A stretch of 64,000 nt of DNA from Escherichia phage REP2: sequence record OQ174501.1; one strand, written 5' to 3'. The notes beneath the pieces are model-generated. The model was not told where the DNA came from. It saw only the letters and a list, made by a program, of their open reading frames with translations, and searched no databases. Positions within the stretch are counted from its first letter, which is position 1. Each line of letters starts with the position of its first letter. Below are positions 1 through 51,396 of this stretch, one piece after another. The position numbers and the translations under genes are program-made.

Positions 1-27
1 AGCCCCGACCGAAAGGTTGGGGCTTTT
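1..27 (+). terminator. Rho-independent terminator hairpin
   Basis: agcccc..ggttggggc stem followed by a T-run; a near-identical copy recurs at 557-585. Confidence 0.55.
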
Positions 28-30
28 TAG

Positions 31-38
31 TATAAATA
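31..38 (+). promoter_or_regulatory. T4-type late promoter (TATAAATA)
   Basis: Exact TATAAATA about 40 nt upstream of the Ip gene start. Confidence 0.5.
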
Positions 39-74
39 AGTATATTAAAACCACGAATTAAAACAGGAAATAAG

Positions 75-548
75 ATGAAATCATATGCTCAATTTTTAAA
101 TGAAGCGGTGTTAAATGAAGCATCTAGCACTGAAATTCAAGCTGTTGCAAAAGCTGCCATTGCCGCGGGTAAATATTCCTATAAAGATGCTTCCGATGAA
201 TCACGATTCCAATTTGCTCGTGATATGAAAGCCGAAGGATTTACAGGGAATGCAGTTAGTATGGCTTGGAAAAGTTTAGTTGCTACTGGAGCTGCTTTTG
301 CAAAGGCTTCGGGTAAACCTGCTCCTAAAGCAGATCCTAAAGCTGCACAAGAAAAAAATATTGTTAAAGGAATTATCTCCAAATATGAAGCTATCCTTAA
401 AGAGCTTTTAGTAATCAAAACTGAAGGCCAAAAGCTAGCTCGTGCTTATAGTTTCAAAGATAACCCACATGCTCACTCTCTTGAGTATGTTGAAGACATC
501 CAAAAAATTATTAAAGACCGCATTTGGTCTGCTAAACAAATCAAATAA
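75..548 (+). CDS. Internal protein (Ip) with capsid-targeting N-terminus
   Basis: N-terminus MKSYAQFLNE|A resembles the T4 Ip capsid-targeting sequence with a gp21-type LxE cleavage site; 157 aa; Lys/Ala-rich. Confidence 0.65.
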   Translation: MKSYAQFLNEAVLNEASSTEIQAVAKAAIAAGKYSYKDASDESRFQFARDMKAEGFTGNAVSMAWKSLVATGAAFAKASGKPAPKADPKAAQEKNIVKGIISKYEAILKELLVIKTEGQKLARAYSFKDNPHAHSLEYVEDIQKIIKDRIWSAKQIK

Positions 549-556
549 CATTCTTA

Positions 557-585
557 GCCCTAGCCGAAAGGTTGGGGCTTTTTGG
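557..585 (+). terminator. Rho-independent terminator hairpin
   Basis: agccctagccgaaaggttggggc + T-run; direct repeat of 1-27. Confidence 0.55.
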
Positions 586-704
586 TATCTAGGCCTTTCC
601 AGGCCTCTCTAGACATCATTTAGTTTCTACCCTTTATAATATATTATCCTATCCTTTAATTGCCCCTCCCTGCCCTAGAATTCCCCAAAACTTTTTAAAT
701 TTTT

Positions 705-752
705 TTCACAAAACTGTTTACATCCCTGTTCTTCCATGGTACTATACAACTA
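705..752 (+). promoter_or_regulatory. T4 early promoter
   Basis: aaaactGTTTACa -35 (716-721) and TACTAT -10 (740-745), about 18-nt spacer; conserved leader ending ggagaatgaaATG. Confidence 0.6.
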
Positions 753-788
753 TCAACTACTGATACAGAAAACAACTTGGAGAATGAA

Positions 789-1052: not shown

Positions 1053-1121
1053 TTGTGTACAAACACCAAGGACGGTGTTATTATAGACTTATCAAAACAA
1101 ATACAGAAAACGGAGAAATAA

Positions 1122-1298
1122 ATGACTACTTTAATTATTTGGTTTGACGAAAATGAAGAAACATACTGCGTGAACATTGGCGAAAGCCCAATGCCAGAAT
1201 TTGAATCTTCAGATAAAAACTCGGTTGTATCTTGGGCTGAAGGTTATAAAGCAGCAAAAGGCGATGTTGAAATAGTTTACAAACTATCCGGAGTATAA
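1122..1298 (+). CDS. Hypothetical small protein (58 aa)
   Basis: ATG preceded by cggagaaataa; fills the gap between flanking ORFs; below the ORF-track size cut-off. Confidence 0.4.
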   Translation: MTTLIIWFDENEETYCVNIGESPMPEFESSDKNSVVSWAEGYKAAKGDVEIVYKLSGV

Positions 1299-1341
1299 TA
1301 CTCTCGTGGATTTTAAATCTTAATTAACCTAAGGAAATACT

Positions 1342-1976: not shown

Positions 1977-2582
1977 ATGAAAATGCAAAGTGATTTCAAT
2001 TCAATGTTTGAAGAGTTCCAAAGACAGGTTGATGTTCCAGACCAATTATTAAATGCTCTTAAACGTATGGCAGAAGGACGTAATTACTATTGGGGTTCTT
2101 CATATGAAACTGATGAAAGTCTTTCTGGATTTTATAAAGGTAAAAAGTCTTTAATACGTCCTGGAATACTTATTAACAGTATTGAATCAATTCATTCATT
2201 AACATGTGATTTTGATGTTGAATTTACTGATTTCATTTCTCCTGAATGGACAGTATGTTATTTAAACGACGATTATGATTATCTTGGCGTTTATAGTTTA
2301 AGTGATGCATGGTTTAAACGTAATTTACAAAAGTCAAATTTATTTTATATTGATACTACGGTAAAATTTCAGGGAAAGAAATATTTCTTTACTCTTATAG
2401 TTGATTCTGAAACAAAGCATGAAAATAAACGTATTCTTAGTAAAAAGAATATCTTAACTATTGTTGATGATCTTTTTGATAAATTCGTAGAAAATCCTAA
2501 TTTTGAAAGCGATTTATTATTAGAAAAATTTGTTAAGGAATGTAGAGAATATGTCAAAGCCATCACTATACCTTCCAAGTAA
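1977..2582 (+). CDS. Hypothetical protein
   Basis: 201 aa; C-terminus FVKECREY shares the junction motif seen in the next three genes. Confidence 0.55.
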   Translation: MKMQSDFNSMFEEFQRQVDVPDQLLNALKRMAEGRNYYWGSSYETDESLSGFYKGKKSLIRPGILINSIESIHSLTCDFDVEFTDFISPEWTVCYLNDDYDYLGVYSLSDAWFKRNLQKSNLFYIDTTVKFQGKKYFFTLIVDSETKHENKRILSKKNILTIVDDLFDKFVENPNFESDLLLEKFVKECREYVKAITIPSK

Positions 2583-2943
2583 ACCGTTGAAGTATGAATT
2601 AAAGCGTCAGATAATTTCTACTGATGTGTTAATAGGTCCTGTGGTAGCCGTATCATTTGTGATTCTGCTGATTGCTGGAATAGTTATAGACGTTATGACT
2701 GATATTGAATCTGGTGCAATATTTGGAGCAACACTAATTCTTCCATTGGTAGTTCCGCTTTTATTAGTACCTATAAATTGGATAGGATATTGGTATCAAG
2801 GAAGACACTATCGTAAACGTGTACGTGAATGGAAAGCTCAGTGTAAAAAGATTAAAAAGGAACACCAGCTTAAACTTGCTGCGCATGAATTTAATGAAAT
2901 TATGAAATTTGTTAAGGAATCACGATGCAAAAGCCAAAACTAA
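2551..2943 (+). CDS. Small membrane protein (2 TM), paralogue family
   Basis: Hydrophobic segments VVAVSFVILLIAGIVI and LILPLVVPLLLVPI; charged C-terminal tail ending KESRCK. Confidence 0.55.
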   Translation: MSKPSLYLPSKPLKYELKRQIISTDVLIGPVVAVSFVILLIAGIVIDVMTDIESGAIFGATLILPLVVPLLLVPINWIGYWYQGRHYRKRVREWKAQCKKIKKEHQLKLAAHEFNEIMKFVKESRCKSQN

Positions 2944-3287
2944 ATAAAGTCAAATATTCTCTTCCTGAGTCATTTTTAATTTTTGCTGTAGCGTTGGCTA
3001 CAGCTCTTGCGGGTAGTCTTTTTGGATTGTTAATTGACTGTCTTATTTTAAACATTGACGGCACAGTAAATATAATAGAAGTTTGGAGTGAACTTCGTTA
3101 TACTATAGCGATTTCATTATTTTCATTCTTTGGTACCATGTTATATTTTCATTATGATAATTTTAAAATAAATTGGCAAAGAAAAAAGGATTACAAAATA
3201 CAATTAAATGAATATAATAACTACATGTCTTATATTGAAAAAGAATCAATGGAAGAGTTTGTGAGTGATTGTAGGAAAATTAAATGA
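2925..3287 (+). CDS. Small membrane protein (2 TM), paralogue family
   Basis: 120 aa; TM segments; C-terminal SDCRKIK. Confidence 0.55.
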   Translation: MQKPKLNKVKYSLPESFLIFAVALATALAGSLFGLLIDCLILNIDGTVNIIEVWSELRYTIAISLFSFFGTMLYFHYDNFKINWQRKKDYKIQLNEYNNYMSYIEKESMEEFVSDCRKIK

Positions 3288-3772
3288 TTTTAAAAACTCG
3301 CTGGTATGATTTAGATGATGGGGACGATGGCATTTCAGTTGATAGAGTTGACTGGAGTGGCTGTTCCGAAGATATGAAAAAATTGTTAATTAGGGAGTTT
3401 AGAATGGGATATCAAGCAGCTAAGCCATCTACTGTAACAGATGATAAATTCGTGTGTATTCAAAATGGTCGTGCTAAGTTAACGAACGCTGATTGGTTCA
3501 CAGATAAGAAGGTTATTCTGTGGTATATTATTAGTTTTCCTGTGACATCATTTGTATTTTGCTTCTTTGGAGAAAGTCCAGTAGGCAGAACGGAAGATTG
3601 GATTCTTTTAATTATACTTGTTAATATTTTTACAGCAGCAGTACTATCAGGAATATGGTGCGTGTTCATTGAAATGCCATGGCGGTTACGTAGGCAGCAA
3701 AAGATTTTTGATGAAAAGAAATATACTCAAAATTTAAATAATTTTATCACTGAATGCAGGAAATTAAAATGA
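3284..3772 (+). CDS. Small membrane protein, paralogue family
   Basis: 162 aa; TM segments; C-terminal TECRKLK; its stop overlaps the nudE start (ATGA). Confidence 0.55.
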   Translation: MILKTRWYDLDDGDDGISVDRVDWSGCSEDMKKLLIREFRMGYQAAKPSTVTDDKFVCIQNGRAKLTNADWFTDKKVILWYIISFPVTSFVFCFFGESPVGRTEDWILLIILVNIFTAAVLSGIWCVFIEMPWRLRRQQKIFDEKKYTQNLNNFITECRKLK

Positions 3773-4208
3773 AAACATTATCAGCTGGTATTATCTTTAT
3801 GACAGAAGATAAAGATTTATTTATGGGACGAGTTACTGGTTCTCGTAAGCCTGGAATGATGGCACATCGCTGGATATTCCAAAGGGGCGTGTAGAAAATT
3901 CTGATTTAAGCGCATTAGATGCAGCACGAAGAGAATGCTCAGAAGAGACTGGTTTTAACAATTATAATCCAGACCTTCTAGAAGACCTAGGTGTATTTAA
4001 ATATTCTAGTAATAAAGACTTACAGTTATTTTATTATACGATTCCAGTAGAGCATGAGATGTTCAGAAATTGCCGTTGTGAGTCTTATTTTGAAAATAAA
4101 GATGGCGTTATGATTCCAGAGATGGATGCTTTTGCTCTTATTCCTCGTACTCAGTGGCAATATGTGATGGGTCCTTCACTTTACCGAATAATGAACAGCC
4201 TCTTTTAA
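3769..4208 (+). pseudogene. nudE: Nudix hydrolase NudE (e.1) with apparent 1-nt deletion frameshift
   Basis: N-terminal 41 codons (MKTLSAGIIFMTED...MMAHRW) stop at 3892-3894; the rest, including the Nudix box GRVENSDLSALDAARRECSEETGF, continues in the -1 frame to 4208. The break is at tgg(g)atattcc. Confidence 0.6.
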
Positions 4209-4778
<570 letters not shown>

Positions 4779-4798
4779 CAGTTACTTGGAGGGATAAA

Positions 4799-5215
4799 AT
4801 GACTCGTATTAATTTGACTTTAGTATCTGAACTTGCTGATCAACATTTAATCGCAGAATACCGTGAATTGCCACGCGTTTTTGGTATAATTCGTAAGCAT
4901 GTGGCAAACGGTAAGCGCGTTAAAGATTTTAAAATATCTTCCGAGTTTATTTTAGGTTCTGGTCATGTTACGTTCTTTTACGATAAGTTAGAATTTTTGC
5001 GAAAGCGTCAATTAGACATTATAACGGAATGCTTAAAACGCGGGTTCAGTATAAAAGATACTGAAGTTCCTGACATCAGCGATATTCCAATAGAATGGAA
5101 AAATGATTATAATCCATGCAAATCAGCTATTAAATTGAGTCAACAACGACTTGATGAAAAAATTTTAATGAAACCACACTGGTATAAGTATTACGGTAAA
5201 AATATTTACATTTAA
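4799..5215 (+). CDS. denV: Endonuclease V (pyrimidine dimer DNA glycosylase)
   Basis: 138 aa; [17 protein letters not shown]...YRELPRVFG matches T4 DenV as I recall it. Confidence 0.93.
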
Positions 5216-5224
5216 AGGAAACAT

Positions 5225-5698
5225 ATGAAAACATATCAAGAATTTATCACTGAAGCAGCTATTAATTCTCAAATTATTGCTGAATCTTTTACCGATCTTT
5301 TGAAATTTAAAAAAGGTCAAAAAATCACTGCTGTATTGGATGATGGTACAGAAGTTGAGATGGATGTACAGGGATATAATTATGCAGTAGATGGAAAACT
5401 GTATAATAAATCTCATGCTAAATTTGATTCATTTGACGACTTTGTTAATACAGTTGAAGATGAAAAAACTCGTAGATCCATTGCAACTGGCGACGCTAAG
5501 GTTCTTATGGCACATGGCCATGAACGCATCCGCGCTAAACAGAATAAAATGGGCGAAGATAATTTTGCATTAGTTGGTTATCAATCTGGTAAACAAACTT
5601 ATGGCTATCAACGTACTGCTACCATGTATAATAAAAATGGTAAAATCGCTTTCGTGAATAGTAAAGGTTCTATTCAGTACGTTAAATCGTTCAAATAA
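5225..5698 (+). CDS. Internal protein (Ip) with capsid-targeting N-terminus
   Basis: MKTYQEFITE|A capsid-targeting sequence; 157 aa. Confidence 0.7.
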   Translation: MKTYQEFITEAAINSQIIAESFTDLLKFKKGQKITAVLDDGTEVEMDVQGYNYAVDGKLYNKSHAKFDSFDDFVNTVEDEKTRRSIATGDAKVLMAHGHERIRAKQNKMGEDNFALVGYQSGKQTYGYQRTATMYNKNGKIAFVNSKGSIQYVKSFK

Positions 5699-5837: not shown

Positions 5838-6379
5838 AAATGAGAACATTTTTAACTGGTCCTTATCTATCCCTGATGAATGCTTTTACACACCATTCTG
5901 ACGCTAGAGTAGAAGAAATTTGTAAAAACGAATATATCCCGCCATTTGAAGAATTACTTAAACAGTACTGCACACTTCGACTAGATGGTGGACGTCAATC
6001 TGGTAAATCAACTGCAGTAACTAATTTTGCCGCTAATTGGTTGTATGACGGTGGAACAGTTATTGTTCTTTCTAATACTTCAGCTTACGCTAAAATTTCT
6101 GCAAATAACATTAAAAAGGAATTTTCGCGTTATTCTAATGATGATATACGTTTTCGTTTATTTACTGATTCTGTACGCAGTTTTATTGGTAATAAAGGAA
6201 GTAAGTTCAGAGGTTTATCGCTTTCGCGAATTTTGTATATAATTGACGAGCCTGTCAAATCTCCTGATATGGATAAGATTTATAGTGTCCATATTGACAC
6301 TGTACACTGCTGCTGTAATATTAAATGTTGTATTGGTGGTATTACTCGTCCACAGTTTTTCGTAATCGGAATGCAATGA
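5838..6379 (+). CDS. P-loop (Walker A) protein
   Basis: GGRQSGKST Walker A motif; start placed at the ATG after ggagagaataaa (ORF track starts at 5792); Cys-rich C-terminus. Confidence 0.5.
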
Positions 6380-6705
6380 TGACAGACACACAGCTTTTCG
6401 AATATCTCTATTTTTCGCCAAAAACTATTAAAAATAAATTGGTAAATCATTTTGAAATTTTGGCAAATAACAACATTTTAAGCGAATTTTATCCCAAGCA
6501 ATACAAATTACAAAAAGGCGTATTCAAAGGATGCAGAGTTTTGTGCACGGCTCCTAATGCACGGCTAATGAATAAAATTCCATATTTTACCATGGAATTT
6601 ATTGATGGGCCTTTTAAAGGACTAATCACACAGAGTTTAATGGCATATGATTCTGAGCCATTTTTAATTAAAGAACAATCTTGGATAAATTTATTTTCTA
6701 ATTGA
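6376..6705 (+). CDS. Hypothetical protein
   Basis: ATGA start/stop overlap with the previous gene; 109 aa. Confidence 0.5.
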   Translation: MMTDTQLFEYLYFSPKTIKNKLVNHFEILANNNILSEFYPKQYKLQKGVFKGCRVLCTAPNARLMNKIPYFTMEFIDGPFKGLITQSLMAYDSEPFLIKEQSWINLFSN

Positions 6706-6711
6706 GGTTAT

Positions 6712-7074
6712 ATGAAAGCATATCAAATTCTTGAAGGCACACATAAAGGTACTATTTATTTTGAAGATGGTATTCAAGCACGAATTATTGTCTCTAAAAC
6801 CTTTAAAGAGGACTCTTTTGTAGACCCAGAAATTTTCTATGGTTTGCATGCCCGTGAAATTGAAATTGAGCAACAGCCTACAGTTAAAATTGAAGGTGGT
6901 CAACACCTGAACGTTAACGTTCTGCGTCGTGAAACTCTGGAAGATGCAGTTAAGCATCCGGAAAAATATCCGCAGCTGACCATCCGTGTATCCGGTTATG
7001 CAGTTCGCTTTAACTCTCTGACTCCGGAACAGCAGCGCGACGTTATCGCTCGTACCTTCACCGAGAGTTTGTAA
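6712..7074 (+). CDS. Autonomous glycyl radical cofactor (GrcA/YfiD-like)
   Basis: C-terminal ~60 aa ([59 protein letters not shown]) matches E. coli GrcA with the glycyl-radical RVSGY motif; this half has host-like codon usage (ctg, cgt, ccg). Confidence 0.85.
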
Positions 7075-51231: not shown

Positions 51232-51396
51232 ATGAAAACATATAAAGAATTTATTAAAGAAGATATGGTTGCTGGAGATTCAGGTGGTAATCTTGAAAAT
51301 ATCTCTACTGGAACAACATCAGGTGCTGTAGTAAATAAAGGTCCTGAACAAATTCCTAAAAAGAAAAAAGAGGAATCTAAAGAAAAAGAAGAGTAA
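51232..51396 (+). CDS. Small protein with Ip-like capsid-targeting N-terminus
   Basis: MKTYKEFIKE|D mirrors the Ip capsid-targeting sequence MKTYQEFITE|A; 54 aa; Lys/Glu-rich tail. Confidence 0.5.
   Translation: MKTYKEFIKEDMVAGDSGGNLENISTGTTSGAVVNKGPEQIPKKKKEESKEKEE

Follow-up and report, generated by a model that had tools for sequence, protein, structure and literature searches.

Comeau et al. reportedly counted more than 30 Ip variants in 2007. The classical polymorphic IP loci are, in the account of Repoila et al. (1994) as later papers give it, two in number, with ipI located between 57B and the tRNAs, and ipII and ipIII between denV and e; that account also describes Ip ORFs that share their leader only, and proposes that conserved non-coding flanks mediate the shuffling of genes at both loci (PMC2839356, PMC4122927, PMC12373910). 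Arbiol et al. (2010) reported no IP genes outside these two loci, and called the blocks of Repoila et al. PeSL-like and early-promoter based (PMC2839356). PeSLs (promoter-early stem-loops) are mobile regulatory cassettes of T4-type phages (Arbiol 2010, PMC2839356; Comeau 2014, PMC4122927). Functionally, the T4 proteins Ip1 (IPI*), Ip2 and Ip3 are injected inhibitors of GmrSD-family type IV restriction enzymes, each specific for a different one (PMC12373910; PMC3012670). Another Ip-locus gene is needed against K-12 type IV systems. The capsid-targeting sequence (CTS) has been defined experimentally for IPIII; it comprises about 10 amino acids, in which targeting depends on residues 4 and 7, and processing on residues 8 and 10, and the gp21 protease cuts after L/I-x-E (PMC9026906).

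Here we describe a cassette that has rnaC, a stable RNA gene, on one side and the early gene e.8 on the other. As at the classical IP loci, small ORFs with only an N-terminal leader of about 11 amino acids in common are set between conserved non-coding blocks with transcription signals at the 5' and 3' sides, and the number, order and identity of the ORFs vary. Unlike the classical loci, the present one extends from rnaC to e.8 and is thus neither of the two; it is empty in T4, T2 and T6, and its proteins (phrog_2280) are annotated as hypothetical. The repeated block also differs, since it consists of a GC-rich terminator plus a late promoter, whereas the block at the ipI locus of Escherichia phage REP3 is an early promoter with an AT-rich stem-loop. 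As in PeSLs, a stem-loop adjoins a promoter and flanks accessory ORFs at the endpoints of indels and replacements. In contrast to PeSLs, the promoter is a late one (TATAAATA) rather than early and sigma-70-like, and the element occurs at a single locus, with one to three copies per genome in the sampled records, rather than dispersed in hyperplastic regions. A description of the rnaC-e.8 cassette was not found in the literature searched, which was itself incomplete. We consider it probable that positions 1-588 of the window (the whole stretch of DNA analysed, 64,000 nucleotides) form a self-contained late-gene cassette, bounded by two terminators (T1 and T2), with a putative packaged and injected product, and exchanged by homologous recombination between phages.

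Layout of the cassette and the terminator repeat

The window is that of a Tequatrovirus (Escherichia phage REP3 record, reverse strand). The REP3 record, together with the annotation of T4, supplied the upstream context. Window base 1 lies about 50 nt past rnaC, which is preceded by rnaD and the tRNA cluster. Downstream of the cassette, the genes are e.8, e.6-e.2, e, denV and another Ip. The features of the cassette and its right flank are the following:

1-28, + strand: terminator T1, the left repeat, with a hairpin at 1-24 (AGCCCCGACC-GAAA-GGTTGGGGCT) and a T-run (fold, repeat search)
31-38, + strand: predicted T4-type late promoter TATAAATA, abutting the T-run of T1 (sequence)
65-68, + strand: Shine-Dalgarno sequence AGGA, 6 nt before the ATG (read from sequence)
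75-548, + strand: ORF A, 157 aa, ATG start (ORF call, phrog_2280, purifying selection)
75-119, + strand: codons of the CTS propeptide, with two L-x-E sites of gp21 type, after Glu10 and Glu15 (motif)
556-583, + strand: terminator T2, the right repeat, AGCCCTAGCC-GAAA-GGTTGGGGCT and a T-run (fold -17.9 kcal/mol, repeat search)
584-788, + strand: conserved spacer, the right-hand homology flank, which in T4 directly follows the single terminator
717-745, + strand: early-type promoter of e.8, TTTACA-17-TACTAT, inside the 584-788 spacer
789-1052, + strand: e.8 homologue, conserved right-edge marker of the variable locus (gene comparison)

T1 (1-28) and T2 (556-583) are two copies of one direct repeat, identical at 25 of 28 positions (AGCCCCGACCGAAAGGTTGGGGCTTTTT is the sequence at 1-28), and a longer alignment of 33 nt (1-33 with 556-588) has 88% identity. 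The earlier note had described a 28-bp terminator that recurs with three mismatches, which proved accurate except that its coordinates were one base off. When up to three mismatches were allowed, the repeat was matched at exactly two places in the 64-kb window, versus 0.00 in 100 dinucleotide-preserving shuffles. Database searches located the element at 1198 places in 733 phage records. A chance likeness between two unrelated GC-rich hairpins, for which the short length of the repeat speaks and nothing else, is extremely improbable, being refuted by the shuffle test and by these many occurrences, with the repeat pair conserved in hundreds of genomes from three genera. Among 40 rows that were sampled, each genome had one to three copies; in the records inspected, these were always at the rnaC-e.8 locus, so the element is not a dispersed terminator family.

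Both copies scored as intrinsic terminators in which a GAAA loop tops a stem of 10 bp and a T-run follows, and in both the GC-rich hairpin is immediately followed by a U-run on the transcribed strand. The RNA folding energy is -19.9 kcal/mol for T1 (z -5.6) and -17.9 kcal/mol for T2 (z -4.1), while the reverse complements fold more weakly (-15.3 and -9.0 kcal/mol, respectively). The substitutions that lead from T1 to T2 are all in the left arm (C to U, G to A and A to G). Because the folds of the opposite strand are weaker, it is on the + strand alone that G-U wobble tolerates these three changes. The pairing is also conserved, as expected for a constraint at the RNA level, and the structure is strand-asymmetric. 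In an alignment of 20 distinct terminator copies from relatives, 91% of cells were paired. One double-sided compensatory pair was found (C-G to G-C); the other changes between standard pairs were one-sided, wobble-preserving and located in the left arm, and TT variants at two positions lead to an unpaired internal loop. As rnaC, after the tRNA cluster and rnaD, lies directly upstream, T1 is predicted to be the terminator of the tRNA/rnaD/rnaC stable-RNA unit. Rfam matched nothing on the cassette itself, and the upstream tRNAs alone were matched.

The octamer TATAAATA is a predicted late promoter of consensus sequence, 36 nt upstream of the ATG of ORF A, and T1 together with the abutting octamer makes up a composite terminator plus late promoter module. 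The octamer on its own is not rare, with five occurrences on the + strand of the 64 kb; its significance as a predicted promoter rests on its position and on its conservation in relatives. Relatives in Tequatrovirus and Dhakavirus retain it although the sequence on either side varies, and the depositors of phage fPS-90 annotated a predicted late promoter at the equivalent site.

The neighbourhood of the cassette contains further deviations from T4. Between e.8 and e.6, a 58-aa ORF (window 1053-1320, + strand; phrog_5461, RB69ORF145c-like) takes the place of T4 e.7; identity between REP3 and phage RB27 falls to 57% there, which marks another small replacement adjoining the cassette. On the other side, between tRNA-Arg and rnaD and about 290-840 nt upstream of window base 1, REP3 has a 184-aa ORF (6159-6713 in retrieved-piece numbering) with MUG113/T5orf172 domains (GIY-YIG-like, homing-endonuclease-type). 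T4 has nothing at this position, and instead has segB elsewhere in the tRNA cluster. The nudE gene appears to be broken (window 3754-4245, + strand): a 46-aa in-frame ORF (annotated as a 126-nt 'nudix hydrolase') compares with 151 aa in T4, and the remainder seems to run on in another frame, which could be due to a frameshift, a pseudogene or a sequencing error.

Two more observations concern the classical loci. In the window (4245-5698, + strand), e directly adjoins denV, and a 157-aa Ip (DUF7412, phrog_3155) follows beyond denV, 9 nt past its stop. In T4, ipII and ipIII are located between denV and e. With the Ip on the far side of denV and e adjacent to it, the classical ipII/ipIII locus is therefore rearranged in the phage of the window. 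At the ipI locus of REP3 (3518-4205 in retrieved-piece numbering), an early-promoter block (TTTCACAAAGTTGTTTACAT...GATACTAT...ATCAA) precedes each ORF, and a related copy is found upstream of e.8 (window 704-760). Judged by their sequence, these early-promoter repeats resemble those of the classical Repoila/PeSL-like type and are not the same as the terminator repeat.

The ORF A product

In agreement with the earlier note, which had placed a 157-aa ORF with a late promoter between the repeats, ORF A runs from 75 to 548 with TATAAATA at 31-38 and a CTS leader. The product is basic (pI 9.5). Its N-terminus, MKSYAQFLNE|AVLNE|A, fits the T4 CTS at all four key residues (Y4, F7, L8 and E10), and contains two predicted gp21 cleavage sites of the L/I-x-E type (LNE10|A and LNE15|A). 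For the mature protein, a mass of about 15.5-16 kDa is predicted. A search of all six reading frames of the window for the CTS-like motif MK[ST][YF]x[EQ]F[ILT] gave three sites, versus 0.003 expected (about 1000-fold over chance), and none in 200 shuffles. The three sites are in ORF A, in the annotated Ip at 5225 and in a 54-aa early ORF.

The last of these (window 51232-51396, + strand; phrog_1823, unknown function) has the leader MKTYKEFIKE, and its neighbours are early genes; it directly precedes the primase gene, at the position of T4 61.1, with no late promoter nearby. It may either be an unrecognised packaged peptide, or indicate that the leader alone need not imply packaging. The presence of a CTS-like leader on this early ORF therefore means that the motif by itself may not prove packaging.

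Beyond the leader, ORF A is an orphan of T4-like phages. BLASTP comparisons with IPII, IPIII and the Ip of the window itself gave nothing significant, the short leader alone being alike; this bears out the claim of the earlier note that ORF A and the second Ip (5225-5698; Pfam DUF7412, PHROG 'internal virion protein') are dissimilar outside the targeting sequence. ORF A was not found to belong to any of the named Ip families (IPI, IPII, IPIII, DUF7412 or PHROG 'internal virion protein'). There was no Pfam match, and among the PHROGs only phrog_2280, a family of unknown function, was matched. A search of 5.8 billion proteins and of a representative library of 1.84 billion proteins returned orphans from T4-like phages as the only relatives. 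The AlphaFold model is all-helical (pLDDT 71, pTM 0.40), with two helical parts and a predicted Pro/Lys/Ala linker between them. Foldseek searches with this model against the PDB and BFVD retrieved only its own family, the model being weak for the detection of distant matches. All database records annotate A, and also the second gene of the locus (B, see below), as hypothetical. The literature searched, which included the fPS-90 paper, yielded no virion proteomics.

ORF A is under purifying selection (pN/pS 0-0.15 versus five relatives). It is present in 511 records, with an amino acid identity of at least 95% in 366 of the 511. Judged from these sequences, ORF A is conserved within its allele class and not hypervariable.

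ORF A resembles Ip1-3 in its CTS leader, its small size and its non-essential, patchy distribution; it is basic, has a predicted late promoter, and is without sequence or fold similarity to them. We regard ORF A as a probable internal (injected) protein. One could alternatively take it for an accessory protein, cytoplasmic or structural, that is made late but neither packaged nor injected, and attribute the CTS likeness to the shared ancestry of a short leader, in line with the lack of homology to IPI, IPII and IPIII beyond 11 residues and with the similar leader on the early ORF at the 61.1 position. We think this improbable, because the four defined CTS positions and the L-x-E|A site are all present, the motif is far in excess of chance, and in T4 a CTS of ten residues is enough for a foreign protein to be packaged (PMC9026906). 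Furthermore, the predicted late promoter would be timed to prohead assembly, and the other two proteins found at the locus (B and C, see below) bear the same leader on otherwise divergent bodies.

States of the locus among relatives

The earlier note had suggested that T-even genomes be compared for alternative genes between the same repeats. In this comparison, the locus was found in four states: empty, with A, with a different CTS-bearing gene (B), and with A and B in tandem. T4 has no ORF between rnaC and e.8, and its single terminator downstream of rnaC (species 1 RNA) combines the stem of T1 with the right flank of T2; what is a lone copy in T4 is duplicated around a gene in REP3. T2 and T6 likewise have one terminator copy and no gene at the locus. 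In RB14 and G4498, T1 is followed by a B cassette and a terminator T3. ORF B encodes 187 aa with the leader MKTYAEFLTE|A..., and the stem of T3 differs from that of T1 and T2, while the tail GGGCTTTTTGGTATCTAGG is shared. The tandem arrangement T1-A-T2-B-T3 is present in fPS-90, UFV13 and three IMG/VR contigs. The depositors of fPS-90 had independently annotated three terminators and a late promoter at this locus.

Inspection of the junctions points to the terminators. In B-only genomes, the sequence after T1 is the sequence found after T2 in A+B genomes, which is the product expected from a crossover between T1 and T2. In A-only genomes, the sequence after T2 is the one found after T3. From these flank matches in B-only, A-only and empty genomes, it follows that the presence/absence junctions are at the terminators. 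As the terminator stem of B is different, removal of B would need only a microhomology of 9-10 bp.

Database matches were sampled at even spacing. Of 41 typable records in this sample, 9 were empty, 20 had A only, 3 had B only, and 9 were presumed to have A and B. Roughly three quarters of the sampled Tequatroviruses carry A and/or B, and ORF B was found in 165 records. A alleles and B assort independently, as the combinations A1, A1+B, A2, A3+B, B and none were all observed.

Replacement of one A allele by another is seen when REP3 is compared with RB27, both Tequatroviruses. The flanks are similar (rnaC 96%, T2 100%, e.8 96.6% identity), but the stretch that begins at the late promoter and takes in most of ORF A is only 74-78% identical. 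T2 is thus fully identical even though the ORF A alleles differ by 22%. The left breakpoint of the swap lies directly past T1 and the promoter. The right breakpoint lies within the conserved last ~70 nt of ORF A, and so not strictly in the terminator.

Phage phiE142 (KU255730.1) has a Mosigvirus-type A cassette (97% identity to AV118) beside a B gene and e.8 of Tequatrovirus type (94%). We downgraded it as an example of exchange between genera, as the 121-kb 'complete' record is classed as Carettavirus and may be a chimeric assembly. The mosaic reflects either true recombination between genera or a mixed lysate that was assembled into a chimera.

With empty (T4, T2, T6), swapped (B in RB14 and G4498), doubled (fPS-90, UFV13) and allele-replaced (RB27) states in hand, the idea of the earlier note that the gene is an exchangeable cassette is supported. 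Its appeal to the known hypervariability of T-even Ip loci needs to be qualified: the locus is indeed polymorphic among relatives, but it is not a classical one, and ORF A does not vary much within its allele class.

The locus is also occupied in other genera. Mosigvirus AV118 has an A homologue (~74% amino acid identity) after rnaC, between two related terminators. In Dhakavirus QL01 (2254-3420 in retrieved-piece numbering), the order is T+PL, A, t, DUF7338 membrane gene, T, e.8. In another, Dhakavirus-like contig (2073-3400), it is T+PL, DUF7338, T+PL, C, t', e.8. A is replaced in this one genome by C, a 205-aa protein that is the third with a CTS. The DUF7338 gene and the CTS gene have exchanged their order between the two Dhakavirus genomes, and therefore the number, order and identity of the genes all vary. 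In Dhakavirus, the terminator plus late promoter module also precedes the DUF7338 membrane-protein gene, which has no CTS.

All Dhakavirus copies of the terminator have a lineage-specific compensatory change in common (GGCCC...GGGCC), and both Mosigvirus copies share the TT internal loop. Since copies within a lineage carry the same lineage-specific changes, these sequences indicate that the repeats evolve in concert within lineages, by homogenisation between copies.

A, B and C fall into one PHROG (phrog_2280). C aligns with A over the N-terminal domain (hhalign probability 83%) and with B over the C-terminal domain (hhalign probability 74%). By BLASTP and hhalign, only the CTS can be aligned between A and B themselves, and we have therefore rejected the notion that the two are recognisable paralogues. 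A remote homology of A and B, with a common origin by tandem duplication, is possible in view of their common PHROG and the bridging alignments of C. Relatives in Yersinia phage fHe-Yen9-01 and Klebsiella phage KP01 combine the N-terminal domain of A with a different, C-like C-terminal half. The sequences suggest mosaicism at the level of domains within the A/B/C family.

The same data allow another account of the repeats. The terminators could be alike only because of a single tandem duplication and could have been kept for termination and insulation, with exchange proceeding via the long flanks (rnaC, the 3' end of ORF A and the e.8 spacer). The common PHROG of A, B and C, with C as a bridge between the N-domain of A and the C-domain of B, fits an old tandem duplication; across genera, identity in rnaC is 95-97%, and the right breakpoint in RB27 is inside the ORF. 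The precise location of the empty and B-only junctions within the terminator (T1 stem, right flank of T2) argues against duplication alone, as do the lineage-specific substitutions common to the copies, and we find this account rather unlikely. The duplication and an exchange at the repeats are compatible with each other and not mutually exclusive, and exchange between phages could also proceed through the long conserved flanks (rnaC and the e.8 spacer), with no need of the 28-bp repeats.

Proposed mechanism and meaning

Together, sequence and comparison reveal terminator hairpins, a conserved promoter octamer, coding constraint, a CTS and a polymorphism with junctions at the terminators. From these we infer late monocistronic transcription, packaging by the CTS, trimming by gp21 and injection. 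In the proposed sequence of events, T1 would stop the tRNA/rnaD/rnaC transcript, and the late promoter that abuts its U-tract would start a monocistronic late mRNA of ~540 nt, to be ended by T2, which would also shield e.8. The product would most likely be loaded into the prohead core via its CTS, trimmed by the gp21 protease after Glu10 and/or Glu15, packaged with the DNA in mature form, and then injected. By analogy with Ip1-3, and with the other Ip-locus gene that is needed against K-12 type IV systems, the injected protein may act against a host defence, for which a modification-dependent (type IV) nuclease is the most plausible candidate.

In T4, it is well documented that short homologies can recombine with each other. 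Because T1 and T2 are near-identical repeats in flanks that are conserved across T-even genera, homologous recombination would delete, re-insert, swap or stack the unit between them. The repeats themselves probably arose by tandem duplication of a unit composed of late promoter, Ip gene and terminator.

A bolder interpretation, which we offer tentatively, is possible as well. The interval between rnaC and e.8 may be a third, unrecognised Ip locus of the T-even phages, whose A, B and C proteins are injected, diversify and counter defences other than those targeted by Ip1-3; the terminator plus late promoter module may be a late counterpart of the PeSLs that serves as a gene-converted crossover site within and between genera. 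The fact that the locus is empty in T4, T2 and T6 would explain why a third Ip locus was missed.

The cassette extends the principle of Ip shuffling formulated in 1994 rather than changing it. New with respect to what is known are the third locus, the module of a strong terminator plus a late promoter, and a protein family not labelled as Ip in any record. The natural series of empty, A, B and A+B genomes, with its clean junctions at terminators, provides a natural example of cassette exchange and is amenable to deletion and swap work. Provided that the A, B and C proteins are indeed injected, they are candidates among which new anti-defence activities could be sought directly, and they could help explain differences in host range among therapeutic T4-like phages. 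The main value of the locus would thus be as a source of predicted, candidate anti-defence proteins.
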